Source: Clostridia bacterium
Lineage (GTDB): Bacteria; Bacillota; Clostridia; Oscillospirales; SIG627
DNA length: 49,739 nt
Direction: 5' to 3'
Assembly (NCBI GenBank): GCA_017959745.1
Contig: JAGDAA010000178.1
Span: 1-49,739 of the forward strand
Positions 17,132 to 49,739 of the stretch are shown here, piece after piece; position 1 is the stretch's first letter, and every line of letters begins with the position of its first letter. A model generated the notes under the pieces. That model was not told where the DNA came from. It worked only from the letters and a program-made list of their open reading frames with translations, and did no database searches. A program made the position numbers and the translations under genes.

Positions 17132-17134
17132 ACG

Positions 17135-18703: not shown

Positions 18704-18774
18704 ACGTTCTCCCTTCCAGGCGGCGAAAAGAACTCGGGCAAAACGCGTGCCCGGTCGCCGCCGTTCTGTTTCTA

Positions 18775-18803: not shown

Positions 18804-18804
18804 A

Positions 18805-19506
18805 CTATACGCCTTTTTCTCTTTCCGTCATATAGGCACGGATCTTTTGAAGCGCGCCTTTTTCCAGTCTGGAGACGTAGGAACGGGAAATGTGAAAGCG
18901 CCGGGCGAGAACGCTTTGGGTTACACCCGCGCCGCCGTCCAGTCCGTATCGCGCCCGGATGATGCTTCTTTCCCGGGGATCCAACACAGTATCCACCGCT
19001 TCCAACGCCGCTTTCACACAATCCCGGCGCCAGATCACTTCCACCACGTCGTCGTCCACCTTCAATACATCCAGGATCGTCAGGGCGTTTCCGTCTTTAT
19101 CCACCTCCAGGGATTCTCCCAGGCTGGTCTCACAAGCGTATTTTTTCTGCGATCTGAAGTACATGAGGATCTCATTCTGCACGCATTTCCCGGCGTAGGT
19201 CGCGAAGCGAGCCCCCTGGGAGACGTCGTAGGAATCAATGGCCTTGATCAGCCCGATGGTCCCGACGGAGATCAGATCCTCCTGAACGTCCGGGGCGGTA
19301 TCGAATTTTTTGATGATGTGCGCCACCAAGCGCAGGTTCCGTTCGATCAGCTGATCCCTGGCGGCACGATCCCCCTCTTTCAATCGCAGGAGCAAAGCCT
19401 CCTCTTCCTCCCTTTTCAGGGGCGGCGGAAAGGCGCTTTTGTTCATCACGCGCAGATACAAAAACGCGAAGCGAGACAGAGCGAATCTCAAAAAGTCAAG
19501 GAACAT
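18805..19506 (-). CDS. sigK: Sporulation sigma factor, most like pro-sigma-K (uninterrupted)
   Basis: Sigma-70 regions 2-4 are present (DLISVGTIGLIKAIDSY, ISRSYVSRLEK). The N-terminal pro-sequence followed by NKSAFPPPL and NLRLVAHIIKKF resembles B. subtilis SigK (NNAFPQPL, NLRLVAHIVKKF) more than SigE. Confidence 0.65.
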   Translation of the reverse strand: MFLDFLRFALSRFAFLYLRVMNKSAFPPPLKREEEEALLLRLKEGDRAARDQLIERNLRLVAHIIKKFDTAPDVQEDLISVGTIGLIKAIDSYDVSQGARFATYAGKCVQNEILMYFRSQKKYACETSLGESLEVDKDGNALTILDVLKVDDDVVEVIWRRDCVKAALEAVDTVLDPRERSIIRARYGLDGGAGVTQSVLARRFHISRSYVSRLEKGALQKIRAYMTEREKGV

Positions 19507-19669
19507 ATCTACCTCCGGTTTCCCTTTTTTCGGATAATTCAGTATATGCGTCCCCGCATTCCGTTTCCCGCATTTCTCTCAACATTTTTCAGCAAATCTA
19601 CCGTCAAATCTTGATTTTAGGATCGAAGACGTGTAGAATAGGGGAAAGTAAGTTGAAAAGAGATCCCGT

Positions 19670-20560
19670 ATGCTATACCCCATCATTGATGTCGGTTCCA
19701 ACACCGTCAAGCTCGCCGTGTTGGACGAGGAAAAGCTATTTAACGCGGCGCCTGTTTTTTTCAAAGCCGTTCCCCTGTGTCTCGGCGCTTCTCTGGTGGA
19801 CAATGCCATGCCCCGGGAAGCGGTCGACCGCCTTTGCGCCCTGATACGTGAATTCAAAGCCATTAGCGCCCGGCTGACAGCGATCCCCCCTATCGCGTTT
19901 GCCACCGCATCCCTGCGCGGCGTTTTGAACCGTGAAGAGGTTTGCGGAGAGGTCGCCAGGGAAACGGGCGTATCCCTGGAGATCATCTCCGGGGAAGACG
20001 AGGCATATTACAGCTTCCTGGGGGCGCTGGGAAACCGGACCAATCAGGCGGGCGTTACGGTGGACCTGGGCGGAGGCTCCACGGAGATCCTCGCCTTCCG
20101 GGACGCCTCCGTGCAGAGCAGCGTTTCATTGCCCATCGGATGCCTTTCCCTTTATAACGAGTTCTTTTCGGATGGAAAAAACGGGATGCCGGCCTGCCGC
20201 GACAAAATCCGGGAGCTGTTGAGGGACGCGCCGGCGCTGCCGGGAAACGCGATCCTGATCAGCGGCGGCAGCGCAAAAGCGCTTTTGAGCTATAAAAACC
20301 TTCTGGAAACAAAAAACAATATGCGCCTGTCCCGGCGGCAGATGGAACGTGTTTTGTGGCACTTCGAGCACGGCAGCGACGAGGACCACGAAAGGATCAA
20401 GGGGATCCTGAGGGAACGGTTCAGGCTGGTTCCGCCCGCTGTCGCCGTCTTTACTGAAATCCTTGCCTTTTACGGGAAAACCGAAGCGTTTGTTTGCCGG
20501 AGCGGCGTCCGGGAAGGCCGCCTCAAAGCCTTTCTCGCGGAAAAATCAAGAAAAGTTTAA
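19670..20560 (+). CDS. Ppx/GppA-family phosphatase (ASKHA fold)
   Basis: N-terminal IIDVGSNTVKLAV and DLGGGSTEI phosphate-binding motifs. Confidence 0.75.
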   Translation: MLYPIIDVGSNTVKLAVLDEEKLFNAAPVFFKAVPLCLGASLVDNAMPREAVDRLCALIREFKAISARLTAIPPIAFATASLRGVLNREEVCGEVARETGVSLEIISGEDEAYYSFLGALGNRTNQAGVTVDLGGGSTEILAFRDASVQSSVSLPIGCLSLYNEFFSDGKNGMPACRDKIRELLRDAPALPGNAILISGGSAKALLSYKNLLETKNNMRLSRRQMERVLWHFEHGSDEDHERIKGILRERFRLVPPAVAVFTEILAFYGKTEAFVCRSGVREGRLKAFLAEKSRKV

Positions 20561-20568
20561 AAAAACCC

Positions 20569-20597
20569 TTGCAATTTGTTTTTTGTCGTGGTATACT
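20569..20597 (+). promoter_or_regulatory. Sigma-A-type promoter for rplS
   Basis: TTGCAA (20569..20574), a 17-nt spacer, then TATACT (20592..20597). Confidence 0.65.
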
Positions 20598-20699
20598 CTC
20601 TCCGTTGCGGTATATAAACCAAGCGGTCCTCTGCCGGCTTCAGCACGAACGCTTGTATGTATACTTAAATAAATTCTTTTATTTAAGGAGGAGCTTGAT
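20598..20699 (+). promoter_or_regulatory. Structured 5' leader of rplS (possible L19 autoregulatory leader)
   Basis: About 100 nt lie between the -10 box and the start codon. CAAGCG...CGCTTG pairs, extended by GTATA/TATAC arms. The assignment to the Rfam L19_leader class is from memory only. Confidence 0.3.
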
Positions 20700-21041
20700 A
20701 TGGATATGATCAAAGCTTTCACAAACGAGCAGCTGAAAAGCGATCCGCCCAAGTTCAACATCGGTGACACCGTACGCGTTCATAATAAGATCGTGGAAGG
20801 CACCCGGGAGCGGACCCAGATTTACGAAGGCACTGTGATCGCCAAGAGAAACGGCGGCATTTCCGAAACCTTCACCGTCAGACGCATTTCTTACGGTGTG
20901 GGCGTGGAAAAGACCTTCCCGCTTCATTCTCCCCGCGTGGAGAAAGTGGAAGTCATCCGTACCGGTAAAGTTCGCAGAGCAAAGCTCTATTATCTGCGTG
21001 ACCGTGTCGGTAAAGCCGCTAAGGTTAAAGAAAAGATCTGA
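20700..21041 (+). CDS. rplS: 50S ribosomal protein L19
   Basis: [60 protein letters not shown] is diagnostic for L19. The RBS is AAGGAGGAG. Confidence 0.97.
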
Positions 21042-21106
21042 AGAGCCTATCCCGAACTGCAAAGTCGCTTTTGACAGCAGCTCATTCGGAGATTGACAAA
21101 CGCTGA

Positions 21107-21138
21107 AGGGGACTTTGAAGAAAGTCCCCTTTCTTGTT
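21107..21138 (+). terminator. Rho-independent terminator or attenuator between rplS and lepB
   Basis: AGGGGACTTT, loop GAAG, AAAGTCCCCT, then TTCTTGTT. It ends just before the lepB RBS. Confidence 0.65.
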
Positions 21139-21151
21139 GAAGGAGATTGCA

Positions 21152-22165
21152 ATGAACGAAAACGACCTTTCCACACCGGAAAAGGAAACACAGTACGCCG
21201 GACCGGAAGAGACTCCCTCTCCGGATAACGGTGAGACCGCGCCGGACAATACAGCGCAGTACGCCGAACCGGAAGAGGTCCCTTCGTTGGATAACAGTGA
21301 AACGGCGCCGGCGGGAGAAGAGAATCGCCCCGCGCGCAGAAGGCCCCTGCGGGCGCGCCGCACCTTATCGCACCCGGACGAAACCGAAAAGGCCGCTCAG
21401 GGTGAAAACGAGAGCAACGAGGTCTACCTGAACGCGTCCGCAGAGCCCATGCAGGACGAGCCCGACATCGCCGACATTTATCCGGACAAGGCGACGGGCG
21501 TGTTTGAGGATTCCCTTCCCCAAGCCGCTGATATCGCCGCCGAACTGGAAGAGGCGGAGCAGCGGGCGGCGCAGGCCCAGGAGGAGCCGGATCCGGACGG
21601 GGAGGAAAAGCTTCCCCCCAGCGTGGCGGTTTTTGACTGGATCAAATCCATCCTCCTGTCCTTCGCGGTGGTGATTTTCACCTTTACCGTCCTGTTCCGC
21701 GGGTCCACCGTGGTAGGCAGTTCCATGATGAATACGCTTCATAACGGCGAGCGGGTCATTATTTCCGACTTTCTGTATACCCCCCGGGGCGGCGATATCG
21801 TGGTGGTGCATACTCCCACCTACAAGAACGGGAAGGATTTTCTCATCAAGCGGGTGATCGCCGTGGGCGGGCAGACCGTCAAGATCAACTTCAACGCCTG
21901 GCAGATCTGGGTGGACGGCGTTCCCTTGGATGAGCCTTACGTCCTGAAACAGGACGCCCCTATGATTTCGGAAAGTTTGCAGGCGGATGACAACGGCGAA
22001 GTGACCTTCACCGTCAAAGAGGATCACGTGTTTGTAATGGGCGATAACCGAAACGACTCTCTGGACAGCCGCTCCGAGCAGATCGGACAGATCAATAAGC
22101 AGTATATTTTAGGAAAAGTCATATTGCGCTATCTGCCCTTCAACGCCTTCGGACCTGTATCATAA
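21152..22165 (+). CDS. lepB: Signal peptidase I with a long acidic N-terminal extension
   Basis: Catalytic Ser box GSSMMNTL, Lys box IKRVIAVGG and the GDNRNDSLDSR box. ATG 21152 lies 6 nt after AAGGAG. About 180 residues rich in Glu, Pro and Asp precede the TM segment. Confidence 0.85.
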   Translation: MNENDLSTPEKETQYAGPEETPSPDNGETAPDNTAQYAEPEEVPSLDNSETAPAGEENRPARRRPLRARRTLSHPDETEKAAQGENESNEVYLNASAEPMQDEPDIADIYPDKATGVFEDSLPQAADIAAELEEAEQRAAQAQEEPDPDGEEKLPPSVAVFDWIKSILLSFAVVIFTFTVLFRGSTVVGSSMMNTLHNGERVIISDFLYTPRGGDIVVVHTPTYKNGKDFLIKRVIAVGGQTVKINFNAWQIWVDGVPLDEPYVLKQDAPMISESLQADDNGEVTFTVKEDHVFVMGDNRNDSLDSRSEQIGQINKQYILGKVILRYLPFNAFGPVS

Positions 22166-36321: not shown

Positions 36322-38733
36322 TCAAGAAAAGATCAACTGCCAGGTCTCTTCATCCACCGCGCCGGTGGCGGTCAAGCCCATTTTTCGCTGAAACTCCATA
36401 ACGGTATGACGGGTGGCGTTGCCGAAAAGCGCCTTCTCACCCAAAGCCCGGCAGGAGCATTCTCCTTTTTCAAACAGGGCCTCCTTGATCCGGGAAACGT
36501 CCCTGCCGTAACTGCCCAGAGAAAGCGCTCTGCCGGGGTAGGAGGATTCTCCTTCCCGCTCTTCAGGCGCGTGGTCGGGTATTTCTTCCTCCTTGTGTGA
36601 AAAGACCGGGCGCGCTTCCTCCTTCGCGCTGACAGCGCGGACGACCGCCGGGAGACAGCCTGACCGGACGGCGGCGGCAACGGAGGACAGAACGCTCCAG
36701 GTCTGACTGCCCACGACACCGTCCTGGCTCAAGCCGAAAATGCCCTGCAGACGGATGATCTGTGTCTGGGTGGCGCCGCCGAACACACCGTCCGCCGTAA
36801 CCACGCCGATACGGGGAATGGAATTGTGGATCACGTTCAGGGAGGACTGGATATAGCTTACGTTACTGCCCCTGGATCCGTAGCGCAGCGGCGTTCCGGG
36901 ATAACTCCGGGTCTGACTGTCCGAGGAGGAAAGGACGCAGTCGTTTTGGACGGCGGTGTAGATCTGTCCCAGGGCGTCCCAGGTCCTTCTCCCCACGACG
37001 CCGTCCTGGGACAGACCAAAGATCTGCTGAAAAGATCGGACCGCCCTTTCGGTGCCCGCGCCGAACACGCCGTCCCGGGCTATGGAAGGTATTTCCTCAA
37101 ACACCCGGGCGATCTCCCACAGCAATTCCTGCACGTACCGCACATCCGTTCCCCGGGATCCCCGGCGAAGCAAAGTACCGGGATAGGGGCGAATGGGAAC
37201 GCCGCCCCCCGGCTCCTCCTGTTCCAGTCCCTTGTAGACGGAAACGATCTTGTTCCAGGTGCTTTCTCCCACGACTCCGTCCACGTTCAAGCCGTAAAAG
37301 GACTGAAAGGCGGTCACGACATTTTCCGTTTGTTCCCCGAAGCGACCGTCGGCGGCGAGGGTGGGGATAAAGTTGTTGTAGGCGGCGATATTCTGCAGAT
37401 AGAACTGCATCGCCTGCACGTCGGAACCCACGTCTCCGCGGCGGAGCGGCGTGCCGGGATACTCAAAGTCGTTATACAAAGGTCTCTCCCCTTCCGAAGT
37501 CAATTCTCCCAGATGTGTCACGGCGGTGTAAATGGCTGAAATACGGTACCAGGTCCGTTTGCCGACCGCGCCGTCGGCGGTCAAATTAAAAATGCGCTGG
37601 AACGCTTGTACCTGTGCCCGGACGGATGTGCCGTAAACGCCGTCCACCGTCACCGTGGGGATGGCGGGATAGTTCCGGGCGATGCGGTTCAGTTGACGCT
37701 GTATGGTGCGCACGGCCTCTCCCGAGGAACCGATGGAAAGCGGGGAGCCGGGATAGGAGGGCTGAATGCTCTGCCGCACGTTCTCCGTGACGATCTCAAT
37801 ATTGCCGTAGTAGAACTCCAGGATCTCCTCCGCGGAAAGACCGTTCTGCGCCAGGGTGACCGTTCCCCACTGGCTCATACCGTCGCAGGTAACGGTGGTC
37901 CCGTTGCAATATTGAGCGAATAGCGGCTCCAGTCTGCCCGGTCTGCGGATATACTGGTTGAATACCTCATCCACCACGTCGGAGATGCTTTGGAAAATGT
38001 TTCTGCCGTACACGTAGTACTGATCAAACGCCGTGGAATTGGTAATGTCGAAATTATATCCCCGGGAGGGATACCATTCTGTAAAGCTGCGGTTCAGGGT
38101 CAGGGAGATCTGCGCCAGGATGTTGGCGCGGAGGGATTCCCGGGGCCAGGTGGGGTAAATCTCACTGCTCGCCACGTTCTTGATGTAGTCGATGAACGGG
38201 ACCGTGACGTTTCGCGCGTCGGACTCCGGACGACCCAGGTGGACGGTGATCTCCGTAGGGATATACACCCGGGACAAAACGCGTTCGTCCGCGGGATCAT
38301 CCGGGACGTCCGGGGTCACGTCCGGCGCGCCGTCTCCATCGCTGTCTGATACGGTGTTCGGCGGCACGGTGTAATGGAGCTCTCCGCTGCTCTGCCCCTC
38401 GGGCAGGGGGAGCATTTCAATGGGCAGGTGCGCCGTCTCTCCCGAAAAGACCTGGGCGTCGTGGACGTAAACGGTATAATATCCTTCCCGGGAAGCGACC
38501 ACGTCGCAGGTGGAGTACGGGATCTCATCCCCGGGTCGCAGGGATAAATCCTCCCGGGGCGCCTCGATCTCCACGGATCTGCTCACGCCGCAGCTCATAT
38601 CACCGATGGTTTCCCGCATTACCTCCCGTCCGTTTTCATCGGTCACCACCAAGCTCGTTCCGCTGACGCAAAACGCTTCGCCCGCGGCGCGGACGGTGAC
38701 CATAAAGGTGCCTTTTGCCAATGCCATCATCAT
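36322..38733 (-). CDS. SleC-like spore cortex-lytic enzyme homolog with an N-terminal beta-sandwich extension and five PG_binding_1 repeats
   Basis: The core ITVHLGRPESDARNVTVPFIDYIKNVASSEIYPTWPRESLRANILAQISLTLNR..EWY.SRGYNFDITNST.FDQ......NIF...S.VVDEVF..Y.RR.G..EPLFAQYC.G..V.C.GMSQWGTV.LA matches my recollection of clostridial SleC. It is followed by five YPG..L..GS.G..V..(I/V)Q..L......DG.FG..T...V..FQ...GL..DG.VG..TW repeats. No signal peptide. There are three consecutive ATGs at 38733, 38730 and 38727. Confidence 0.6.
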   Translation of the reverse strand: MMMALAKGTFMVTVRAAGEAFCVSGTSLVVTDENGREVMRETIGDMSCGVSRSVEIEAPREDLSLRPGDEIPYSTCDVVASREGYYTVYVHDAQVFSGETAHLPIEMLPLPEGQSSGELHYTVPPNTVSDSDGDGAPDVTPDVPDDPADERVLSRVYIPTEITVHLGRPESDARNVTVPFIDYIKNVASSEIYPTWPRESLRANILAQISLTLNRSFTEWYPSRGYNFDITNSTAFDQYYVYGRNIFQSISDVVDEVFNQYIRRPGRLEPLFAQYCNGTTVTCDGMSQWGTVTLAQNGLSAEEILEFYYGNIEIVTENVRQSIQPSYPGSPLSIGSSGEAVRTIQRQLNRIARNYPAIPTVTVDGVYGTSVRAQVQAFQRIFNLTADGAVGKRTWYRISAIYTAVTHLGELTSEGERPLYNDFEYPGTPLRRGDVGSDVQAMQFYLQNIAAYNNFIPTLAADGRFGEQTENVVTAFQSFYGLNVDGVVGESTWNKIVSVYKGLEQEEPGGGVPIRPYPGTLLRRGSRGTDVRYVQELLWEIARVFEEIPSIARDGVFGAGTERAVRSFQQIFGLSQDGVVGRRTWDALGQIYTAVQNDCVLSSSDSQTRSYPGTPLRYGSRGSNVSYIQSSLNVIHNSIPRIGVVTADGVFGGATQTQIIRLQGIFGLSQDGVVGSQTWSVLSSVAAAVRSGCLPAVVRAVSAKEEARPVFSHKEEEIPDHAPEEREGESSYPGRALSLGSYGRDVSRIKEALFEKGECSCRALGEKALFGNATRHTVMEFQRKMGLTATGAVDEETWQLIFS

Positions 38734-39772: not shown

Positions 39773-39803
39773 GCCGACCGGAACGGGTCCCGTTCCGGTC
39801 GGC
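39773..39803. terminator. Perfect 14-bp GC-rich hairpin downstream of SBP-like gene 1, lacking a clear U-tract
   Basis: GCCGACCGGAACGG, loop GTC, CCGTTCCGGTCGGC. It starts about 20 nt after the stop of 39824..41527 on the minus strand. Confidence 0.45.
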
Positions 39804-39823: not shown

Positions 39824-41527
39824 CTATTCCAGCGCCAGATAATCCTGGACGTTGGAAGCGTAGCCCTTCAGGGTGTCGATGTTGCTCGCGTAGGACGTTG
39901 CCAGCGCGTCCCACTTGGACTCGTCGTTACCGGCGGACTTGAACTTGTCATACAGGTCGGAGCTTAAAACCATACCTCTCTCAAAATAAATGCTGTTAAA
40001 GATCAATTCCAGTGTCTGTAATGGCTTGCCGCCGTATTCCGAATTGTGCAGACCGGGCAGCGCGGCGAGCTGCTGTATAAAGGCGTCCCGCACGTCATAG
40101 CCCTTGCTGTTATGTTTGCCCAGCGACGCCTCCATATAGGCGCTCATAAGGTACCCGGCAAGATTTTTGCCGCTATCAAACCCGTACCGGGCTGCAAAGC
40201 CGTCCGCGTGATTGTATTTCGGAATGGCGTACAGGTAGCAAAAGCCCATGCCGGGATTCATACGGTATTTCTCCTGGGCAGCGCTCCCCTTGGCATCCGG
40301 CAGGATCGCCAAAGCGTAACCGGAAGACCGCATCTGAGAATTATAGGCATAAACCGTACTGCCGATGTAACGGATCACGACAGTGGACTTTGTGCCGCTG
40401 TAAATATTGCTGCCGGCGGACGTATCCCGTTCAGAAGCGAGAAGAGGCTTCAACGCTGCCCACGCTTCATAGCCCGGACAGGCGGAAAAACTATCATAAA
40501 AGGTATAGGCAGAGCCGTTGTGGTAAACGGATTCAAAGCCCGCGGACATCATCTGATCGAAATTGATCCGCGTTTCCGCACCAACCTTGTAATGAGTGGG
40601 CTCTGTGCCGCTGTAATGATTGTAACAGGTGTTCACCACGTCCAACATAGTCTCGATGGTCCAGTCGCCGTCCAGCACCTTATCGTAAATAAAATCGGCG
40701 GCGGCAGCCACGTTGACCAGTCCGAAGGACTGTTGAACGTTGGTCAGCCCAATGGCGGGCAAGAACACAGATTGACGGACAGCGGAGTCGGACGCGCCGG
40801 TGAGATAGTAGAGCGCATTATCAAAAGTAATACCGCTCAGAAGATCCGCGTCGTACCACTGTGCCGAAAGATCTATGGTGGGGATGTTACAGACGTTCTG
40901 AACGTACCCTATGGATGCGTAATTGTAATAATTGCCCAGGGGGAGCATCACAGCGTCGTAGGAGTCCAAACCGCAGAGAGAATCGATCTTTAACGTATCG
41001 AAGGTATTGTAGACCCGCTCCTCTTCCACGGTGATATTATAGGTATCCTTCAGGTACTTGTTCCGCTGAGTGACCACCTCGCTGATCTTGGTGTAATACC
41101 TGGCGTAGGAGGAGGTATCGCTCCAGCTCCCGGAAGTCCACGGGCAAACGTCCTTTACGGAAAAATGGGTGGTTTTGAATTTCGTTCTCCCGCTTCCGTC
41201 ATTCAACACCCCGTCGTCCGCGCCGCCGTAGGTGAGGACACGGAAGGTATAACCGTCCTCGAAATACACAGGGCGCGCGGGATCAAAAGAGGCGATATAG
41301 CGGCTCGCGTCCCGTTCCTTCCAGGGATAAGTCAAACCGCCGTTTTCATCCACATAACCGTCCCAGCAGGCGGCGTGGCGCGCCAGGATGGCGGCATCCC
41401 GGGCGGTTACTGCTCCGTCGCCGTCTACATCAGCCGCTTGAGTGGGCGTAAGAGCCGACGCGGGAAGGGTGAAAAGGGGCGCGAGGATCAGCAGGCAAAG
41501 AAACAGCGAAATCCATTTCGTTTTCAT
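39824..41527 (-). CDS. Secreted solute-binding-protein-like protein 1 with an N-terminal single dockerin-like Ca-loop module
   Basis: Signal peptide MKTKWISLFLCLLILAPLFTLPASA, with no lipobox Cys at the cleavage site. This is followed by DVDGDGAVTARDAAILARHAACWDGYVDENGGLTYPW. The rest resembles large Firmicute family-1 extracellular solute-binding proteins (YD.V...., IPTIDL....W, YYLTG, DGDWT, SAAQEKY). Confidence 0.5.
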   Translation of the reverse strand: MKTKWISLFLCLLILAPLFTLPASALTPTQAADVDGDGAVTARDAAILARHAACWDGYVDENGGLTYPWKERDASRYIASFDPARPVYFEDGYTFRVLTYGGADDGVLNDGSGRTKFKTTHFSVKDVCPWTSGSWSDTSSYARYYTKISEVVTQRNKYLKDTYNITVEEERVYNTFDTLKIDSLCGLDSYDAVMLPLGNYYNYASIGYVQNVCNIPTIDLSAQWYDADLLSGITFDNALYYLTGASDSAVRQSVFLPAIGLTNVQQSFGLVNVAAAADFIYDKVLDGDWTIETMLDVVNTCYNHYSGTEPTHYKVGAETRINFDQMMSAGFESVYHNGSAYTFYDSFSACPGYEAWAALKPLLASERDTSAGSNIYSGTKSTVVIRYIGSTVYAYNSQMRSSGYALAILPDAKGSAAQEKYRMNPGMGFCYLYAIPKYNHADGFAARYGFDSGKNLAGYLMSAYMEASLGKHNSKGYDVRDAFIQQLAALPGLHNSEYGGKPLQTLELIFNSIYFERGMVLSSDLYDKFKSAGNDESKWDALATSYASNIDTLKGYASNVQDYLALE

Positions 41528-41530
41528 AGC

Positions 41531-43864
41531 TTACACCCCCGATCCCGTATGCCCGGAGATCCGGGGCTCGGTACTGCCGTTATTGTAGAGAATATGGAGC
41601 ATGGTCAGAAGCTCTTCCCCGTGTTCCTCGGCAGTCCCCACGGCAAACCGGGTCACGTAGGTCTCATAGCCGTTCTGGAAGTTTTGACTCTCGGTGTGGT
41701 TCCTGGCATAGCGGGTTGGCATATAGCCCCAGGAGCTGTTGGAATAGCCGCAGAGAAATGTCAGGGCAAAGGGAGACTTCTCATCGGTATAGGTATAGGT
41801 CGCCGCCCCGAAGGTGGTGCCGCTCACGTTTGTGGAAACGGTTACGGGCATCCCGGCTTCGTCATACCGGATGTAACGCCCGTCCTTGAGCTGCTGCCCG
41901 ACGGTATCGAAGGGCTCATAGGGACAGAAGCAGAAGGCGACGGACTGCCCAATGGAAAAGACGTACAGTTCAATGGGGGCGGTAAACTTTTCCGCCTTTG
42001 TATCCATCGCCGTAAGATCCGTCCAGGCGCTCCGGTTGTTGAGAGCGTTGGCGTAGTAGTTATTAACGTAGAGTCCCGTCGCGAGGCGGCACAACAGGCG
42101 CGCCACGCAGAACTGCACGTTCAGCGACCCGCCGGAGCCGCCGTTTTCCTCCATGCCCTCCGTGAACGCCTCGTTGATCTTTTTGCGGTAGGTATTCAAA
42201 ACGGACCAGGCAAATGCCTTTTTTTCAACGTCCGTCGATTTCCCGGCGTATTCCGCCGCCAAAGACCGGATCGCGTTCAGCTCCGTGGCGCCCACCGTAA
42301 CGGTGGTCCCTTTGTTCTGATACTGAACGGCGTAGGAGCTTTTGAAGGTTATGGAACCGTTGGCGATCCCCGCCAGCTGATTCATCACCACGCGCAGATC
42401 CCGATCGTTGCTCTGATAGGTGGAATAATACGTGGATTTCACCGCGCGCACAGCGCCGGTGGGAAGCTGCTTGATCCCCTGCCAGTCGTCCGTCCAATTC
42501 TGCCGGGCGACCCCGTGACTGTCCGACGTATCGTTATGCACGGGAGCGGCGTAATTCTTCGGCGTTGTGGCAATATCTTTGATAATGGCGTCGCCCACGA
42601 TGGCACCGACCATCTGGGACTTCCAGTAACCCTTGTTGGTATTGGTGCCGCTGTAGCAGTAATTGTAATACTTGGAATCCCACCCGCTCAGGCGAAGGGA
42701 TGTGAAGGAGGTGGATCCGATCTGCTTGTTCTGGGCGTTATCGATCCGGTCGTTCTGATTCATATTGCCGGCGCCGCCCTGATAATACGCCGTAAGGTAC
42801 CCCTCGCCCTCCAGCACATTCCGGGATCCGTTGATGAAATCAGCGGAAACGATGCGGTTGGTCTTGGACGAGGTGTTATACTTGCCAACGTAACTGCCAT
42901 CCGTGTTCAAATCATAGCAGCCGTTGCCGACCTGGTCGGGATGGCACTGCCAGTTGTACATAAGAACGTCCCGCAGTCCGTCCCGCTTGAAGAGAAGGTA
43001 CTGTACCTCATTGTCCCCGGGGGTCTCGTGCGCCAGATACGTCACGCCGTCGTCCACGTTGTTGGGGCCTTCGTAGCCCACGCGGTTGTTGTCGCCGATG
43101 AGGTTATGGGTCTCGTATTTGTCATAGGTTGAAGAGGAAGAATAGCTCACCAGAAAACGGCGGACGAAGTTGATATTGTTCACGGAGGTGTCCCCCGCCC
43201 AGAGAGTGGCGGGCGCCAGATCGTTCACGGCGCGCCGCGCCGCCTGTCCCGCCTTGCGGACAAGATCCAGAAAATACCGCTGCGTATAGCCGCGGGAGAC
43301 GCTCGTATCGGCGTTATCAGGCCCGGTATGGGTGTGGGAGGCGGTCACGGAAATGTGATCCAGCGGCACAAGGGTCTGCCGGGAGGCGTTTTCCCGGATC
43401 ATCAGTCCCAGGTCCTTCGCAAAACCGACGATATCCACGGAGAGCATCAGAATGGTCTCACCCGCCGCGTCACGCACGGCAACGCAGGTGACTTTCAAGC
43501 CGTCGTTTTCGGGCACTCCGGTGGCGTGACGGGTATCGGTGTTGCCGTAGCCCGCAAGGGGCATCCGTTTATAAAAGCCGAGGTCAGGGGTGGTGTCTAC
43601 GATCCCGTAGCCCACGGAAAAGCACTCCTCCGGAGGCTCGGGACAGGCCACACCGCCGTTTTCATCTATGTAGTCCTCCCAGCCGGCAGGATGGCGCGCC
43701 ACGATCGCCGCGTCGCGTGTCCGCACAAAACCGTCCCCATCCACGTCACCGACCATGGATGAGGTCTTTGTTTCGCCCTCGGCGAGGGCGGGAAGGGTCC
43801 CGCCGCTGAACAGGATCGTCAGGGAGAGACATACCGCCAGAATTCGACAAAGCTTACTTTTCAT
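41531..43864 (-). CDS. Secreted neutral/alkaline-ceramidase-like zinc hydrolase 1 with an N-terminal dockerin-like module
   Basis: Signal peptide MKSKLCRILAVCLSLTILFSGGTLPALA, then GDVDGDGFVRTRDAAIVARHPAGWEDYIDENGG. The N-domain FSVGYGIVDTTPD...PLAGYGNT...GLKVTCVAVRD....ILMLSVD and the ASHTHTGP motif resemble the ceramidase HTHSGP Zn site. Confidence 0.6.
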   Translation of the reverse strand: MKSKLCRILAVCLSLTILFSGGTLPALAEGETKTSSMVGDVDGDGFVRTRDAAIVARHPAGWEDYIDENGGVACPEPPEECFSVGYGIVDTTPDLGFYKRMPLAGYGNTDTRHATGVPENDGLKVTCVAVRDAAGETILMLSVDIVGFAKDLGLMIRENASRQTLVPLDHISVTASHTHTGPDNADTSVSRGYTQRYFLDLVRKAGQAARRAVNDLAPATLWAGDTSVNNINFVRRFLVSYSSSSTYDKYETHNLIGDNNRVGYEGPNNVDDGVTYLAHETPGDNEVQYLLFKRDGLRDVLMYNWQCHPDQVGNGCYDLNTDGSYVGKYNTSSKTNRIVSADFINGSRNVLEGEGYLTAYYQGGAGNMNQNDRIDNAQNKQIGSTSFTSLRLSGWDSKYYNYCYSGTNTNKGYWKSQMVGAIVGDAIIKDIATTPKNYAAPVHNDTSDSHGVARQNWTDDWQGIKQLPTGAVRAVKSTYYSTYQSNDRDLRVVMNQLAGIANGSITFKSSYAVQYQNKGTTVTVGATELNAIRSLAAEYAGKSTDVEKKAFAWSVLNTYRKKINEAFTEGMEENGGSGGSLNVQFCVARLLCRLATGLYVNNYYANALNNRSAWTDLTAMDTKAEKFTAPIELYVFSIGQSVAFCFCPYEPFDTVGQQLKDGRYIRYDEAGMPVTVSTNVSGTTFGAATYTYTDEKSPFALTFLCGYSNSSWGYMPTRYARNHTESQNFQNGYETYVTRFAVGTAEEHGEELLTMLHILYNNGSTEPRISGHTGSGV

Positions 43865-43909
43865 CAGTTGTTCCTCTTCAGGATACAGTACCTCTATTTA
43901 ACCTTATAT

Positions 43910-43938
43910 ATTTTACCGCAAAGCTCCCCTTCCGTCAA
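43910..43938 (-). promoter_or_regulatory. Sigma-A-type promoter for cassette 1 (cer-like-1 plus SBP-like-1)
   Basis: On the minus strand: TTGACG (43938..43933), a 17-nt spacer, then TAAAAT (43915..43910), about 45 nt before ATG 43864. Confidence 0.6.
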
Positions 43939-43977
43939 TCTTTTTTTGGCGAAACGCAAATTACAAAAGCAAGCGGC

Positions 43978-44019
43978 AACACGACAAAACCCCGCGCCGT
44001 TCAAAGAATGGCGCGGGGT
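43978..44019 (-). terminator. Rho-independent terminator ending cassette 2
   Basis: On the minus strand: ACCCCGCGCC, 11-nt loop, GGCGCGGGGT, then TTTTGTCGTGTT. It lies about 20 nt after the SBP-like-2 stop. Confidence 0.7.
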
Positions 44020-44037
44020 CGTATAGTCAGCGGCGGT

Positions 44038-45798
44038 TTATCGGTCCATCGCCGAAAAGTCCAACATTTTGTTGAGATACCTTTGCTGCTGGTTGTAAGC
44101 GGTGGCGTATCGGGAGGAAAGGGTGTCCCAGTTCGCCGCGACTCCCCCCGTAATGGAAAACACCGAGGTGATGGGAGACGTATAAATAAAGCAGAAATCC
44201 AGAGTCAGACCGTCGAAAATCATCCTGAGCGCGGCTTTCGGCTTCCCTTCCGGGTATTCGGGAGACACAAAATCAGCGTTGTGGAAACTCCGCCGTTCGG
44301 ACAGTTGCTCGATCACGGCGTCCTTCAAGTCGTATCCCAGGGTGTTGTGCCTGGCGAGGGACGCCTCCATAAACGCGGAGATGAAATAGCCCTCCATATC
44401 CTTTCCGCTCTCAAAGCCGTACTGATCCGCGTACGCCCCGGCGCGGTTTGCCGTGGGAATGACGTACATACAGCAAAAGCCGTTATTGGGCTGGGTGATA
44501 TAATGCTCCTGAGCGGCGCTCCCCTTGGGGAACGGCAGAAATGCCATCCAGTTGTTCGTGCTGGTACTGTCGTAAGCGGAACTGTTGCAATAGGTGGGAA
44601 CACCGATGGCGCGGATGACGCCGGAGGAACCGGAAAGCCCGCCGGTGATGGCGGCGTTCTCCGTGGTAGTTCTGTGTCCCTCGTCCGATAAAAAGCCCTT
44701 GAGCTTCACGAACGCGTCGCTCCCGGGACAGTCGACAAAGCTGCTGTACAACTGCCTTGTTTCGGGATTGTAGGCGGAAAAGCCGGCCCCCACGGCATGG
44801 GTAATATTGCTGGTACCGGTGGCGGAATAAAGCCACTTGTTCGTTTTGTCGGAATACGCGTTGAAGCAAGTCGTGCCAACCTCGATGAGCTTATCCACGG
44901 TCCAATCGCCATTCAGAACCAAATCGTAGATAAAATTACCCGCCGCTTTTTCGTCTGTCAGTCCGTAGGCCTCCTTCACGGTCTTCAAGCCGATGACGGG
45001 AAGGAACACCGCGTGCCGCAGGGTGGAATCGGAAGCGCCGGTAAGGAAATACGCCGCGTCGCCGCAGGCAACGCCCCGTATGATATCCTCCTCATACCAT
45101 TCCTTCGTGATGTCCACGGTAGGAATGTTCATCACGTTTTCATACAAGCCGAATGTCACCTGGCTCTGGATGGTCATATTCAGCATCGGCGAAGTAAGCC
45201 CGACGCTCACGGCGGCAAGGTCATAGGAACAGGACCCGCTGAAAAGGTCGACATGCAGCTCCCCGAAGGGATCCGATACGCGGATCTCCTCGATGCTGCA
45301 ATGATAGGTTTCTTCCAGGTAGGCGTTACGCTGCGCCACGGCGGCGCTGAGCTTCGTAAAGCGCTTCGCGTAGCCGCCATAGTCGCTCCAGCTGCCATCC
45401 AGCCAGGGGCACACGTCCATCACGGAAAAATGGGTGGTCTTGAATTTGGGAACCGTCTCTCCGTCCAGTTCCCTCGTCCCGTCTGCTTCACCGGCGCGGG
45501 TCAGGACGCGGAAGGTATAGCCGCCGAAGTCTACCGGTTGATCGGGATCAAAGCTCTTGACAAACTTCCCGTCCGTCCGCGGTCCGGTACGCCAGGGATA
45601 GGTGAGGCGGCCACGTTTATCCACGTAGCCCTCCCAGCCGGCATTATAGCGCGCGAGGATCGCGGCGTCCCGGGCGGTCACCGCGCCGTCCCCGTCCACA
45701 TCAGCCGCCTGAGCGGGCGTCAGCGCGGAGGCGGAAAGGGAGAATTGAGGCAGGAGGATCGCCAAACAAAGCAAAAGCGAAAACAGCTTACACTTCAA
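44038..45798 (-). CDS. Secreted solute-binding-protein-like protein 2 (paralog of 39824..41527)
   Basis: I prefer TTG 45798, which follows GAGGAGGGG by about 5 nt and avoids overlapping the upstream gene. Signal peptide KCKLFSLLLCLAILLPQFSLSASA, then DVDGDGAVTARDAAILARYNAGWEGYVDKRGRLTYPW. Blocks shared with the paralog include KFKTTHFSV.DVCPW, YFLTGASDS, NGDWT and SAAQEHY. Confidence 0.5.
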   Translation of the reverse strand: MKCKLFSLLLCLAILLPQFSLSASALTPAQAADVDGDGAVTARDAAILARYNAGWEGYVDKRGRLTYPWRTGPRTDGKFVKSFDPDQPVDFGGYTFRVLTRAGEADGTRELDGETVPKFKTTHFSVMDVCPWLDGSWSDYGGYAKRFTKLSAAVAQRNAYLEETYHCSIEEIRVSDPFGELHVDLFSGSCSYDLAAVSVGLTSPMLNMTIQSQVTFGLYENVMNIPTVDITKEWYEEDIIRGVACGDAAYFLTGASDSTLRHAVFLPVIGLKTVKEAYGLTDEKAAGNFIYDLVLNGDWTVDKLIEVGTTCFNAYSDKTNKWLYSATGTSNITHAVGAGFSAYNPETRQLYSSFVDCPGSDAFVKLKGFLSDEGHRTTTENAAITGGLSGSSGVIRAIGVPTYCNSSAYDSTSTNNWMAFLPFPKGSAAQEHYITQPNNGFCCMYVIPTANRAGAYADQYGFESGKDMEGYFISAFMEASLARHNTLGYDLKDAVIEQLSERRSFHNADFVSPEYPEGKPKAALRMIFDGLTLDFCFIYTSPITSVFSITGGVAANWDTLSSRYATAYNQQQRYLNKMLDFSAMDR

Positions 45799-45811
45799 AA
45801 TACCCCTCCTC

Positions 45812-48427
45812 TCAATCGTCGCCCGCGTCTTCGGAAACATCGCCCATGCCGCCGCCGGTATTGCCGGAAACGCGCGGGGTGGTGTCTCCGCCGTTGTAAA
45901 GGATGTTCAGCATGGTGATCAATTCCATCGCGTGGTCCTCGCCGGTGCCCGCCAGGAATTTGGTGATATAGGTTTCGTAGCCGTTCTGATAATTATCGGA
46001 CTCCTGATGATTCCGGGCGTAAAGGGTGGGCATATATCCGTAGGAGCCGTTGGAATACCCGCAGGCAAAGGTGAGTTCAAAGGGCGACTTTTCGTCCCGG
46101 TACTCATACAGCGCCGCTTCATAGGTCAGCGTGGGATAGGGGGAGGACTTGCCGTTCACGTTGGTATAACTGGAGGCCGTGAGACGGGGCGGTTTGAGCG
46201 CCGTGCGGGTCTCCGTGATGGGTATATCGTTTTCGTCATAGCGGATATAGCGTCCGTCCTTGATCATTTGTCCCAGGGTGTCGAACATCTCATAGGGCAT
46301 GAAGGAAAACGCCACGGACTGCCCGATGGCGATGCAGGACAGAGGTATCGGGCGGGTGTGCAGACTCAGGTCCGTCGTTTCCTGCGTCAGGTCGGTCTGG
46401 GGCAGACGGGTATCGAGGATGCCGTTGCCGGAATAGTTGCTGACGTAAAGACCTGTGGCGAGGCGGCACACCAGGCGCGCTTTCTTAAACAAGGCGTTGC
46501 TGTTGCCGTTTTGCCCCTGATTGGCGTATATACCGTCCTTGAAAGCGTCCCGGACCGGTTGTATATAGGTTCTGAGCATATCCCGGGCAAAGGTCTTTCT
46601 CTCCGCTATGGTGGAGAGCGCGGCGAATTGCACCGCCTTGTCGCGGATCTCGTTGATCTCCGCGGCGGTAACGCTGACAGTGGTGCCGGTATAGGTGACG
46701 GAATAGGTGTTCATCAAGGGTATATCCGCCCCGGTGGAGGTGACTCCCACCCGGTCGTAAGCGGCAAGGTCGGAAAGATACGCCATCACGGTGGCAAGAT
46801 CCCGATCCGCGTTGTCCAGGGTGGAATAGAAAGTGGAGTGCATAGCGGAAACGTTGCCCGTTTCCAGTTGGCGAAGCCCCTGCCAGTTGTCCGTCCAGTG
46901 GTGGGTAATAACGGGCTTCGTCACGTTTTCGGAATCCTTGTACGTCCGGTTCTGGGTGGAAGTGACGTCGTTGTGATGCGGCTCGCTGTACGCCGCGTAC
47001 GGCTTATTCATATCCTTGAGGATGGAATCCGCCACGATCGCGCCGATCATCTGAGACTTCCAATAGCCCTTTCTGCCCGTGCTGCTGCTGAAATCATCGG
47101 ATAATGTATAGTACCGGCTGTCCCAGCCCGGCAGGCGGTATTCGGCGTACTCCGCCTTGGCGGTCTGGGCGTTGTTGGAATATCCCACGATATCATAGTA
47201 ATTGTTGTTGCCGCTGCCGCCGTTGAAGAAGGCGGTGAGATACCCTTCCTTTTCGTCCAGCACCCGGCGGACGCCGTTGATGTAATCGGCGGTGATGATC
47301 CGGTTTTTCGCGCGGATAGCGGTGTTGGTATTCTTATACTCGCTCTCCGTATAGCTGGAGGTCCCCTCACTGTCATTCGCCGCCTTTCCGAAAGCGCGGT
47401 AGCTGCCGTCCAGACTCAGATCCGGGCAGTCGTTGCCCGTGATATCCGCGTGGCATTGCCAGTTGTAGAGGAGCACGTCCTTGACGCCCTCCCGCTTGAA
47501 GACGATGTACTGGACCTCGTTGTCCGCGGGGGTCTCGTTTTCATAGGCGATATCCCCGTCGTCCACGGGGTTCGGACCCTCATAGCCGATGCGGTGCATA
47601 GTCTGCTCCGTCTCCCCGGCGACGGAATGGCTCTGATAGGATCCCATCGTTTTGGAATCGGAATACCAGGTGAGCCGGCGCCGCACGAAATTCAGATCGG
47701 TAACGGAGGTATCCCCCGCCCACAGGGTAGCGGGCGTCAGATCCGCTATGGCGCGGCGCGCCGCCTGGGCGCCTTTTTGGAAAACCTCCATGATGTACCG
47801 GGTCATATAGCCCCATCCCTCGGGGGAGTTCGTTAAGGAAGTGGGGTATTCCGGTCCGGAATGGGTATGGGACGCGTTGATCGCCATATTCTCGGCGGGG
47901 ATACCCGTCGCTTGGGACGCCGTGTTCTTGATCCCCTCCGCGACCATAGCGCCGCTTTCATTACTGCGAAAACCGCTGAATCCGGAGCGATCCAGCGTGA
48001 CCATCAAAACGGTCTCCCCCCGCTCGTCCCGAATGGCGACGCAGGTCAGATACAGCCCGTCCCCGTCGGGAACGCCGGACGCCAGGCGGGAGTTGGTGTT
48101 CCCGTACCCCGCCAGGGGCACCCGGGGATAGTAAGCGGGATCGGGGGTAATGTTCACCTTGCCGTAGCCCACGGAAAACGCCGCCGTTTCTGTCTCGGGA
48201 TAGGTCAGTTCCCCGTTTTCATCCACATAGTCCTCCCACCGGGCGAGATACCGCGCCACAATGGCGGCGTCCCGGGGCAGGACAACGCCGTCCCCGTCCA
48301 CGTCGCCCGTTATCGCGGATTCCCGCGTTTCAGCGGACGCCGGCGTCGCGAACAGCCCGAGAAGCATGGCAAACACCAACAGAACGGACAGCAATCTGGT
48401 ACTATTTTTACTCAAAGGCCCTCCCAT
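45812..48427 (-). CDS. Secreted neutral/alkaline-ceramidase-like zinc hydrolase 2 (paralog of 41531..43864)
   Basis: The ASHTHSGP motif, FSVGYGKVNITPD...PLAGYGNT, and long blocks shared with the paralog (GYWKSQMIGAIV, CRLATGLYV, KDGRYIRYDE, GYSNGSYGYMPTLYARNH). The start is uncertain: ATG 48427, or TTG 48415 after GGGAGGG, which would give MSKNSTRLLSVLLVFAMLLGLFATPASA. TTG 48487 would overlap the upstream gene. Confidence 0.6.
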   Translation of the reverse strand: MGGPLSKNSTRLLSVLLVFAMLLGLFATPASAETRESAITGDVDGDGVVLPRDAAIVARYLARWEDYVDENGELTYPETETAAFSVGYGKVNITPDPAYYPRVPLAGYGNTNSRLASGVPDGDGLYLTCVAIRDERGETVLMVTLDRSGFSGFRSNESGAMVAEGIKNTASQATGIPAENMAINASHTHSGPEYPTSLTNSPEGWGYMTRYIMEVFQKGAQAARRAIADLTPATLWAGDTSVTDLNFVRRRLTWYSDSKTMGSYQSHSVAGETEQTMHRIGYEGPNPVDDGDIAYENETPADNEVQYIVFKREGVKDVLLYNWQCHADITGNDCPDLSLDGSYRAFGKAANDSEGTSSYTESEYKNTNTAIRAKNRIITADYINGVRRVLDEKEGYLTAFFNGGSGNNNYYDIVGYSNNAQTAKAEYAEYRLPGWDSRYYTLSDDFSSSTGRKGYWKSQMIGAIVADSILKDMNKPYAAYSEPHHNDVTSTQNRTYKDSENVTKPVITHHWTDNWQGLRQLETGNVSAMHSTFYSTLDNADRDLATVMAYLSDLAAYDRVGVTSTGADIPLMNTYSVTYTGTTVSVTAAEINEIRDKAVQFAALSTIAERKTFARDMLRTYIQPVRDAFKDGIYANQGQNGNSNALFKKARLVCRLATGLYVSNYSGNGILDTRLPQTDLTQETTDLSLHTRPIPLSCIAIGQSVAFSFMPYEMFDTLGQMIKDGRYIRYDENDIPITETRTALKPPRLTASSYTNVNGKSSPYPTLTYEAALYEYRDEKSPFELTFACGYSNGSYGYMPTLYARNHQESDNYQNGYETYITKFLAGTGEDHAMELITMLNILYNGGDTTPRVSGNTGGGMGDVSEDAGDD

Positions 48428-48458
48428 CGTGAATAGCGGTTTACTATACCGCGTATTA

Positions 48459-49739
48459 TCAAAATCTGGTAACGTTCTCAAAGACAATATCCTCGTTTTC
48501 TTCCCGGGGATTCAACTCCCGGATCAAACCCACGTCGCCCCGGATCGCCGCGTTCCGGACGCGGAAATTCCGGGCGATCAATCCGTCGAAATAGAACGGC
48601 ACGCCTTCCCTTCTGGTACTGTTCCAGAAGATGCCGTCCGCCAGCAGGTTTTCAACCGTGGTGGTGCGCTGGGTGGGATCCGCGATCAGGCGCGTGTCCA
48701 GTTCGTCGCCGGAAACCTCGACCTTCAAGTGACGGCCCGCTTTGATCTGAGACACGGCGATGGCGTGGTTCCCCCGCTCACTTACGGAAAGATTGCGAAT
48801 GATCACGTTTTGCGCCGCGCAGTTCAATACAACGCCCGCCAGGGCGGCGGAATGCACGTTGGAAATAAAGATATCCCGCATTTCCTCCGGACGGCAGCGC
48901 TGGGAAGGATCGGGACAGTAGCCGTTTTCCCCGATCTTGACACAGGAGGCGGTACGGATCAGGTCCTCATTTTCCGGGGTGGCGTCCGTTATGCCGTCGA
49001 TGGTGATATCGTGGATCCTGCGGCGGTTGTGGCACAACAGACGGATCAGGGCGCAGTGATTATTGCGACCGGTGATGTTTTGAATCGTCACGTTATAGAT
49101 ATCAAAAGACAAATGATCGCAGGCGTGCTGCAATTCAAAGCAATTCGGACGAATGGCAAGGGCGGTCAGCGCCACAATATCGTCGCAGGTCTCGCCGGTG
49201 AGATTTAGGATCTGAATGTCGTGACAGCCGACCCTGAGATCGATCCCATCCTGGTTGCGCCAGGGGTGAAAAGCGGACTCCCGGATGCTTTTGTCCCCGA
49301 TCTCAAAATGAATGTCGGAGATCACGCCGTCCCACGCCCACGCCAGGGTAATGCCCCACCAGCGCTGGTCACGCACGGTGAGATGCTCGATCCGGAAATT
49401 CCTGACGTTATGCAGATAAACTGTCAAGTTGTTGACAATATGCGGCATTCCGTCCTGCAGGGACGTTTTTTCCCGCAGACCGTTGTGCTTGCCTCCGTCC
49501 AGAACGGCGCGTCCCACGCCCCGGAGGACGATATCCTCCTGAAGCCCCTCGGGCGTTCTGCCGATCTCCTCAAAGGCGTTGGCGTTCCGAAACATCTGGC
49601 AGAAAACACCGTCTGCCATACGCAAATGGGCGTTATCCAGCGTGACGGTGATATGAGAGGGCAGAAGGATCGTTTCCTCGATCTCCCAGAGGTAGGTCCC
49701 GGTGCGCTGATTGAAAGACGGAATAACCACGCTGCCGCA
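48459..49739 (-). CDS. Right-handed beta-helix protein, GH28-like glycoside hydrolase. The 5' end lies beyond the window.
   Basis: RNQDGIDL followed about 21 residues later by TCDDIVAL resembles the GH28 NTDG...DD catalytic spacing, and the sequence has the periodicity of a parallel beta-helix. The frame stays open to position 49739. Confidence 0.5.
   Translation of the reverse strand, partial: CGSVVIPSFNQRTGTYLWEIEETILLPSHITVTLDNAHLRMADGVFCQMFRNANAFEEIGRTPEGLQEDIVLRGVGRAVLDGGKHNGLREKTSLQDGMPHIVNNLTVYLHNVRNFRIEHLTVRDQRWWGITLAWAWDGVISDIHFEIGDKSIRESAFHPWRNQDGIDLRVGCHDIQILNLTGETCDDIVALTALAIRPNCFELQHACDHLSFDIYNVTIQNITGRNNHCALIRLLCHNRRRIHDITIDGITDATPENEDLIRTASCVKIGENGYCPDPSQRCRPEEMRDIFISNVHSAALAGVVLNCAAQNVIIRNLSVSERGNHAIAVSQIKAGRHLKVEVSGDELDTRLIADPTQRTTTVENLLADGIFWNSTRREGVPFYFDGLIARNFRVRNAAIRGDVGLIRELNPREENEDIVFENVTRF

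Follow-up and report, generated by a model that had tools for sequence, protein, structure and literature searches.

A rare, duplicated Clostridia gene pair encodes a ceramidase-like hydrolase and a putative solute-binding-fold protein that carry the same dockerin-like tag

Why would a secreted hydrolase be encoded, twice in a row, beside a protein resembling the solute-binding proteins (SBPs) of ATP-binding cassette (ABC) importers, with no transporter in sight? The question is raised by a 49,739-nucleotide stretch of DNA from an uncultured gut-type Clostridia bacterium (contig JAGDAA010000178.1 of assembly GCA_017959745.1; hereafter the window), on whose minus strand a very rare two-gene unit occurs twice. 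Each unit pairs a large, ceramidase-like protein (cer-like, the enzyme) with a smaller SBP-like protein (the binder), and all four proteins begin with an AxA-type signal peptide followed at once by one dockerin-like calcium loop and helix. Our preferred reading, to which we give a probability of roughly 0.45, is that each unit specifies a co-expressed and co-tethered extracellular enzyme-plus-binder pair that would work outside ABC import. Each of the two proteins is a divergent offshoot of a superfamily already known. The novelty lies in the combination of the two, in a dockerin-like tag of one repeat that stands at both N-termini in place of a lipobox, and in the rarity of the clade; literature searches on ceramidases with dockerins, Firmicutes ceramidases and dockerin-bearing SBPs returned no description of such a system. 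The shared half-dockerin tag, the lipoprotein relatives of both families and two canonical dockerin proteins elsewhere in the window were all absent from the initial annotation of this sequence. Comparison supports the architecture well, and the biochemical link between the partners that we propose below is a hypothesis built on it.

Two tandem units encode enzyme and binder

The two units follow one another on the minus strand, and all four open reading frames (ORFs) lie where they had initially been annotated:

45812..48427, minus strand: cer-like-2, 871 amino acids (aa), ATG start; secreted, with a signal peptide, a half-dockerin and a putative Zn-amidohydrolase domain carrying large insertions
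44038..45798, minus strand: SBP-like-2, 586 aa, TTG start; secreted, putative divergent solute-binding-fold protein with an N-terminal half-dockerin
43981..44019, minus strand: intrinsic-terminator-like hairpin directly 3′ of the SBP-like-2 stop, read by eye
43910..43938, minus strand: sigma-70-like promoter TTGACG-17-TAAAAT ahead of cer-like-1, matching 10 of 12 consensus positions
41531..43864, minus strand: cer-like-1, 777 aa; secreted paralogue with the architecture of cer-like-2
39824..41527, minus strand: SBP-like-1, 567 aa; secreted paralogue of SBP-like-2, starting 3 nucleotides (nt) past the cer-like-1 stop
39773..39803, minus strand: 14-bp perfect hairpin (39803-39790/39786-39773, 3-nt loop) 3′ of SBP-like-1, closing the second unit

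Within the units the junctions are tight. The cer-like-2 gene ends in TGA and is followed by a 13-nt spacer, GAGGAGGGGTATT, and the TTG start of SBP-like-2, and cer-like-1 runs into SBP-like-1 as GTG TAA-GCT-ATG, with 3 nt between the genes and a G-rich Shine–Dalgarno sequence; both SBP-like genes have a Shine–Dalgarno sequence ahead of them. These junctions bear out the intergenic distances of 3 and 13 nt given in the initial annotation, and a translationally coupled two-gene operon is the best explanation for each unit. The start of cer-like-2 is uncertain, lying either at ATG 48427 or at an alternative TTG at 48412 with GGGAGGG ahead of it, in a frame that is open as far as a TTG at 48487. 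The terminator, promoter and 14-bp hairpin described earlier are likewise present. The terminator-like hairpin consists of a 10-bp G+C stem (44019-44010/43998-43989), an 11-nt loop and then TTTTG, and was read directly after an automatic scan missed it because of its 11-nt loop. The 14-bp hairpin is followed by no real T tract, and TTGACG-17-TAAAAT is a consensus match only, promoter-like sites in the region being no commoner than in shuffled sequence.

The large proteins share the fold and active site of neutral ceramidases

The two large proteins are 49% identical over ~850 columns (E = 0), and every motif block that had been listed as common to them is visible in their pairwise alignment. 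The initial annotation had linked them to neutral ceramidases through an HTHSGP-type motif and had expected matches to the Pfam family PF04734. The link holds for fold and active site, and the family threshold is not reached: cer-like-2 scores 27.1 bits, below the gathering score of 32.1, over profile positions 1-167 of 509 only, and cer-like-1 has no PF04734 match in the Pfam scan. PF04734 has been remarked in print often to yield N-terminal partial matches. The cer-like-1 protein retains SHTHTGP, NFVRR, WQCHP, GYMPT and NGYETY. Sequence searches of the large proteins directly against the PDB gave nothing useful, and NCBIfam returned no match.

Comparison of profiles and of predicted structures is far more informative. 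Among 5.8 billion proteins searched there were only seven of the long form (760-871 aa) and many ~480-aa relatives, several of them annotated as ceramidase N-terminal-domain proteins. In a 32-sequence alignment of the large-protein family that includes the ~480-aa relatives (A2), homology spans the whole of the short protein, to which the long forms add several large insertions and an extra N-terminal module. The A2 profile matches human neutral ceramidase (4WGK, E 1e-15) and the Pseudomonas enzyme (2ZWS, E 8e-13) in the PDB, each in two stretches that take in the surroundings of HxH and the C-terminal part with the Tyr residues, and the match runs from the N-terminal strand through the C-terminal Tyr motifs of neutral ceramidases. 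Six residues are invariant in all 32 sequences and align to SGTHTHSGP, NRSP, aiHP, HY and RYE of 4WGK. By profile alignment, and in cer-like-2 numbering, they correspond to residues of human neutral ceramidase as follows:

H187 and H189: His194 and His196
R249: Arg257
H326: His303
Y798: Tyr579
Y817: Tyr591

In the human enzyme His196, Arg257, Tyr579 and Tyr591 are named as critical for catalysis (review, PMC6952831). The motif noted initially is thus part of a conserved constellation of HxH, Arg, His, Tyr and Tyr.

The structural check that had been proposed for the large proteins singled out the same enzymes. An AlphaFold2 (AF2) model built on A2 reached a predicted local distance difference test score (pLDDT) of 76.7 and a predicted template modelling score (pTM) of 0.83, and Foldseek against the PDB returned only 2ZWS, 2ZXC and 4WGK below E 1e-3 (E 3e-14 to 7e-13, probability 1.0, target TM 0.44-0.50, 11-13% identity in the structural alignment); the next match had an E value of 0.17. 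Together, these results support the large proteins as remote homologues of the neutral-ceramidase catalytic domain and members of its fold superfamily, and stop short of placing them in the ceramidase family sensu stricto. We predict that they are catalytically competent Zn-dependent amidohydrolases.

Neutral ceramidases (ASAH2, 4WGK; Pseudomonas aeruginosa CDase, 2ZWS/2ZXC; PF04734 plus PF17048) share the catalytic fold and active-site residues of the large proteins and are, like them, secreted or extracellular. By contrast, the large proteins lack the immunoglobulin (Ig)-like domain and end ~50 residues past the last Tyr motif, have Asn at the position of Ser354, contain lineage-specific insertions of 300-400 aa and bear the N-terminal dockerin-like tag. 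Nearer kin are the ~480-aa 'neutral/alkaline non-lysosomal ceramidase N-terminal domain-containing' lipoproteins of Clostridia and Oscillospiraceae, direct ancestors or sisters of the large proteins, which align with them end to end at 27-34% identity and keep the same invariant residues. These lipoproteins differ in having a lipobox, no dockerin tag and no large insertions, and they are found, with no SBP-like partner, singly or in tandem arrays of as many as 13. The longest such array (locus L009; JGI 3300018495, Ga0187908_10001087, 1276..21440; source name 'Ruminococcaceae bacterium') holds 13 tandem ~480-aa ceramidase-like paralogues on one strand, interrupted by a gene for a glycerophosphodiester phosphodiesterase (GDPD), and contains no binder gene.

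The small proteins are diverged relatives of solute-binding proteins

The small proteins (44% identity between SBP-like-1 and SBP-like-2, E = 6e-164) had been said to resemble family-1 SBPs. This resemblance stands as a two-step homology chain and fails as a direct match: the expected SBP_bac_1 or SBP_bac_8 hits are missing from the Pfam scan, and neither NCBIfam nor a direct sequence search of the PDB gave a match. A word-indexed search found only seven homologues. When a profile of the seven family members (A1) was run against 1.84 billion representatives, it retrieved 4965 relatives, mostly ~490-510 aa in length; 976 fall at E ≤ 1e-10. The nearest are lipobox lipoproteins with the source name 'hypothetical protein [Clostridia bacterium]', and an alignment of 13 of these (A4) matches A1 in hhalign with 100% probability (E 9e-50, 481 columns), which establishes full-length homology. 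The second step uses a broader set of 50 sequences (A3), made up of 7 from the window's family and 43 relatives, the latter all matched by the A1 profile at E ≤ about 6e-16. Within A3, 13 of 50 members match SBP_bac_1 (best 8e-8) and 6 of 50 match SBP_bac_8 (2e-9), and the A3 profile reaches the arabino-oligosaccharide binder 6RJY (E 1.5e-6) and MalE proteins (~3e-5) in the PDB. Only this broader profile reached SBP structures; the A4 profile alone found no SBP in the PDB, and A1 gave no SBP there and weak dockerin matches alone. The fold assignment draws on this homology chain and not on structure, because the AF2 model of SBP-like-1 was unusable. On that sequence evidence, the small proteins are probably highly diverged members of the solute-binding fold, presumably two-lobed. 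They are of a size class similar to large Firmicute sugar binders and are linked to family-1 SBPs (SBP_bac_1/SBP_bac_8; AbnE 6RJY, MalE) by remote homology through the ~500-aa lipoprotein clade, and they differ from these SBPs in having no lipid anchor, no nearby permease or ATPase, and a hydrolase as genomic partner.

The absence of transport genes extends beyond the four genes. Pfam scans of 42 window ORFs, which included all long non-overlapping ones, found no ABC permease or ATPase, as the initial annotation had stated for the window, and none was found in the syntenic loci. Among 99 flanking proteins at 80 loci of binder relatives there are 5 matches to ABC_tran, and the permease family BPD_transp_1 does not figure in the list of families with at least two matching proteins; these few ABC neighbours suggest that, in gene order, the SBP-like clade as a whole has largely parted from ABC permeases. 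URO-D-like genes are the joint commonest neighbours of the SBP-like relatives, tied with ABC_tran at 5 of 99 each. The ~500-aa SBP-like lipoproteins, which number in the thousands, often form tandem arrays of 2-5 copies in the metagenome loci (L014-L093), for example L059 3597..10310, L065 628..7338 and L046 2879..10124.

An enzyme and a binder encoded side by side could be coupled by pathway only, the enzyme freeing a soluble product that a conventional SBP hands to an ABC importer encoded elsewhere, with no cooperation between the two. It is a familiar situation for an orphan SBP gene to serve a permease encoded far away, the ancestry of the small proteins lies among family-1 SBPs, ABC_tran does turn up near 5 of the 99 neighbours of relatives, and the visible part of the genome amounts to 49.7 kb only. 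We nevertheless consider this explanation unlikely. Gram-positive SBPs need a lipid anchor to stay at the membrane, whereas the small proteins have a dockerin-type tag instead; the whole lipoprotein clade is rarely found beside permeases; and the enzyme bears the same tag as the binder.

Both partners carry a single dockerin-like repeat

The tag follows the consensus (G/A)DVDGDGxxxxRDAAIxARxxxxWxxYVDxxGxxTYP and contains one canonical 12-residue calcium loop per protein (D-x-D-x-D-G-x5-D; D1, D3, D5, D12). Its four occurrences are:

48197..48307, minus strand: half-dockerin of cer-like-2, GDVDGDGVVLPRDAAIVARYLARWEDYVDENGELTYP; Dockerin_1 hidden Markov model (HMM) positions 2-23
45595..45705, minus strand: half-dockerin of SBP-like-2; Dockerin_1 HMM positions 31-55, 25.0 bits
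43640..43750, minus strand: half-dockerin of cer-like-1; Dockerin_1 match, repeat 1
41324..41434, minus strand: half-dockerin of SBP-like-1; Dockerin_1 match, repeat 2

Two tandem F-hand repeats are not seen in these tags, whose matches cover HMM positions 2-23 or 31-55 of 57. The tags of the window enzymes fit positions 2-21 and 2-23, which is repeat 1, and those of the window binders and of the binders at two distant loci (P0055 and P0056, from L010 and L011) fit positions 31-56, which is repeat 2. Relative to the PF00404 cut-off of 22.9 bits, the small proteins score 24.8 and 25.0 and the large proteins 14.6 and 20.2. In every lineage read, the enzyme tag opens with G-DVDGDG and the binder tag with A-DVD(G/E)DG, openings that resemble those of the first and second repeats in the full dockerins of the same organism (GDANGDG and ADANGDG). 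Relatives of both protein families carry lipoboxes instead, indicating that the tag has replaced a lipid anchor in both partners. The type I dockerins of cellulosomal dockerin–cohesin systems have the same canonical calcium loop and dockerin-type helix; the tag departs from them in comprising one repeat rather than two, in being N-terminal rather than C-terminal, and in sitting on a non-glycosidase enzyme and a binding protein.

Full dockerins are also encoded in the window:

276..2165 and 2233..3933, plus strand: two tandem secreted proteins with canonical two-repeat C-terminal dockerins

These proteins are paralogues (46% identity), each with a signal peptide, and contain a ~330-aa unannotated domain with a Cys motif 'LTNxCGTxVxWxLxRV' and a His motif 'GHARM' that has only 12 homologues in the database, all unannotated. 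Their presence indicates that the organism uses dockerin-type tethering.

Division of the tags into repeat-1 and repeat-2 types raises the possibility that the dockerin is split between the partners, the repeat-1 F-hand of the enzyme and the repeat-2 F-hand of the binder pairing through calcium to give an obligate heterodimer that might also dock to a cohesin. EF-hands and F-hands normally fold in pairs, and each of these proteins has a single calcium loop; the fit of enzyme tags to HMM positions 2-23 and of binder tags (window, P0055 and P0056) to 31-56 would be as expected, and so would the G-D and A-D openings that mirror the two repeats of the full dockerins. However, the two HMM halves are similar and the repeat assignment hangs on few residues, both partners share a W-x-x-Y-V-D-x-x-G-x-x-T-Y-P tail that is not obviously complementary, AF2 confidence is low for the module, and locus L013 has tandem enzymes without a binder between them. 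We regard a split dockerin as distinctly improbable.

The pair was duplicated as a unit within a very rare clade

Adjacency of enzyme and binder, which the initial annotation proposed to look for in related genomes, recurs in related loci. The syntenic order in L001-L003 and L012 is GH28-like gene, enzyme-2, binder-2, enzyme-1, binder-1, PdxK-like kinase and PG_binding protein. Enzyme-then-binder order is seen in the window (twice), L001 (twice), L002/L003 (twice), L012, L004, L010 and L011, and thus recurs in six lineages, with one variant arrangement (L013). Distant lineages have a single pair in the corresponding chromosomal position, immediately upstream of a GNAT gene in divergent orientation; the L010 pair lies downstream of MutS2 and SleB-like genes, and the L004 contig shows the C-terminus of the enzyme, the binder and then DUF4886. 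The DUF4886 gene (L004 1891..2730) overlaps the pair by 4 nt and is a possible third component there.

Pairwise identities divide the large proteins into orthologue groups L1 and L2 and the small proteins into groups S1 and S2:

L1 orthologues: 68-73% identity
L2 orthologues: 61-65% identity
L1 versus L2: 52-56% identity
S1 orthologues: 56-64% identity
S2 orthologues: 54-58% identity
S1 versus S2: 44-49% identity
Outgroup lineages (L004, L010, L011) versus the window clade: 26-36% identity

The groups of large and small proteins are congruent, which indicates that the pair was duplicated as a unit before the three related species diverged and agrees with the whole-unit duplication first suggested from the gene order. 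Architecture varies more widely outside the window clade. The L010 enzyme is 987 aa long with a ~370-aa C-terminal extension, and the L011 enzyme gene is cut by the contig end, so that a homologous extension alone is visible ahead of the binder. This extension is homologous to the unannotated domain of the two dockerin proteins at 276..2165 and 2233..3933 (31% identity, E 1e-30), so that the two enzyme types are connected, at the level of sequence, by a domain fusion.

The clade is extremely rare, with about ten proteins of each type among billions. A contig scan using the dockerin motif as a pattern found the family in one GTDB species representative, a metagenome-assembled genome named 'uncultured Clostridia bacterium'. 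Outside the clade, relatives of the enzyme and of the binder are unlinked, and the partnership therefore appears confined to this small group; an ancient and widespread enzyme–binder pairing was rejected because 80 loci of binder relatives contain no ceramidase-like neighbours.

A tethered enzyme and binder outside transport

In the co-tethered reading that we favour, each unit would provide a secreted enzyme and a binder that act at the cell surface. The enzyme would cleave the N-acyl (amide) bond of a ceramide-like lipid, a glycolipid or another N-acylated compound. Its fold argues for an N-acyl amide held in a hydrophobic pocket, and a glycolipid or N-acylated sugar would fit the ancestry of the binder among sugar-type SBPs. 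The binder, descended from a clade that seems largely to have lost its genomic linkage to permeases, would capture the substrate of the enzyme or one of its products. With the lipobox of their relatives replaced by a cleavable signal peptide and a dockerin-type calcium loop and helix, the partners would most likely be held together by the shared tag, docked on one cohesin-like receptor or bound to one another. The duplicated copies have since diverged, presumably towards related substrates.

Several observations weigh against this proposal. Among the enzymes, both miss the PF04734 threshold, Pfam finds no PF17048 Ig-like C-terminal domain on the large proteins, and the position of the conserved Ser (human Ser354) in the G-x-x-S-P-N loop is occupied by Asn (G-N-x-N, N409 in cer-like-2), Pseudomonas GNLSPN aligning with GNINPN of the profile. 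Among the binders, no SBP family matches either protein at E ≤ 1 in Pfam, the AF2 model of SBP-like-1 built from a seven-sequence alignment has a pLDDT of 42, and Foldseek with this model ranks SBPs 4-5 at E ≥ 3, which is not significant. A cohesin is missing from the Pfam scans of the 42 window ORFs, the rest of the genome not having been searched. Gene order also supplies exceptions: in L013 the GH28-like gene precedes a tandem of two enzyme genes, the ~480-aa relatives of the enzyme can be found with no SBP-like neighbour, as in L009, and an enzyme neighbour is found for the ~500-aa binder relatives in 0 of 80 metagenomic loci.

If the pair does cooperate, the solute-binding fold would have a new role, serving a secreted hydrolase in place of a transporter, and the tag would be a new kind of dockerin-type module, a single N-terminal repeat in the place of a lipid anchor. 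Cooperation would also open a first way into the function of two large families of Clostridial lipoproteins that lack annotation, the ~480-aa ceramidase-like and the ~500-aa SBP-like proteins. Were the substrate a sphingolipid or N-acyl lipid, this would point to extracellular processing of such lipids by Clostridia, which the literature searched does not describe for this family.

A functional analogy, with no homology behind it, is offered by the lysosomal sphingolipid hydrolases and their saposins or GM2 activator, the proposed logic being that a non-catalytic binder extracts an amphiphilic substrate or presents it to an amidase or glycosidase. By this analogy, an SBP-fold protein may have left transport altogether and become the substrate-presenting subunit of a surface lipid or N-acyl amidase, joined to it by a split dockerin. 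Such a subunit, whose probability we put as low as that of the split dockerin itself, would amount to a new way of building a two-subunit extracellular enzyme and to a bacterial counterpart of hydrolase-plus-activator systems.

Neighbouring genes and the cell envelope

Three further genes of the window are of note:

48459..49730, minus strand: GH28-like beta-helix protein (PF00295, E 1.4e-9), its N-terminus cut by the window end
36322..38733, minus strand: 803-aa protein with five PG_binding_1 repeats and a weak SpoIID-like region
7901..9472, minus strand: apolipoprotein N-acyltransferase (Lnt-like: CN_hydrolase plus LNT_N)

Between the stop of the GH28-like gene and cer-like-2 lie 31 nt, and the two genes may share a transcript. 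The GH28-like gene lies upstream of the cassette in L001-L003, L012 and L013 and is absent from the more distant loci, L010 among them. A full-length orthologue starts MHRSYMDPNDF and has no signal peptide, and on that ground we rejected the GH28-like protein as a secreted or extracellular partner. The initial annotation had taken this neighbour as a hint of a glycoconjugate substrate; lacking a signal peptide and missing from the distant loci, it is a weak guide.

The 803-aa PG_binding_1 protein is encoded two genes downstream of the cassette, past the gene for the PdxK-like kinase. L002 and L003 contain it and the single-pair locus L010 lacks it, which places it in the same variable island.

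With such neighbours, the enzyme might instead be an envelope or spore amidase that acts on the cell's own wall, cortex or lipopeptide, the binder recognising a muropeptide or glycan. The cassette sits between a SleB-type Hydrolase_2 gene (seen in syntenic loci, past the window end) and the PG_binding_1/SpoIID-like protein, it is near the spoIIIA operon, and the L010/L011 enzyme is fused to the Cys/His-motif domain, which could be a papain-like amidase. This alternative seems to us very unlikely. Synteny of the sporulation genes on the flanks is kept and what the cassette contains changes, the pattern of a variable island; the sole promoter-like site is of sigma-70 type; dockerin-type tags are typical of extracellular substrate-degrading systems; and Pfam, NCBIfam and PDB searches revealed no homology to known peptidoglycan amidases. 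A co-tethered, surface-acting pair remains the reading that we prefer for the cassette.

Recent foreign origin of the region was also rejected, as composition gives no sign of it (G+C fraction of 0.53-0.60 across the region versus 0.573 for the whole window). At the far end of the window, the Lnt-like gene is an observation in its own right: Lnt is not common in Firmicutes, and here it is encoded in the genome of a sporulating Clostridia bacterium.

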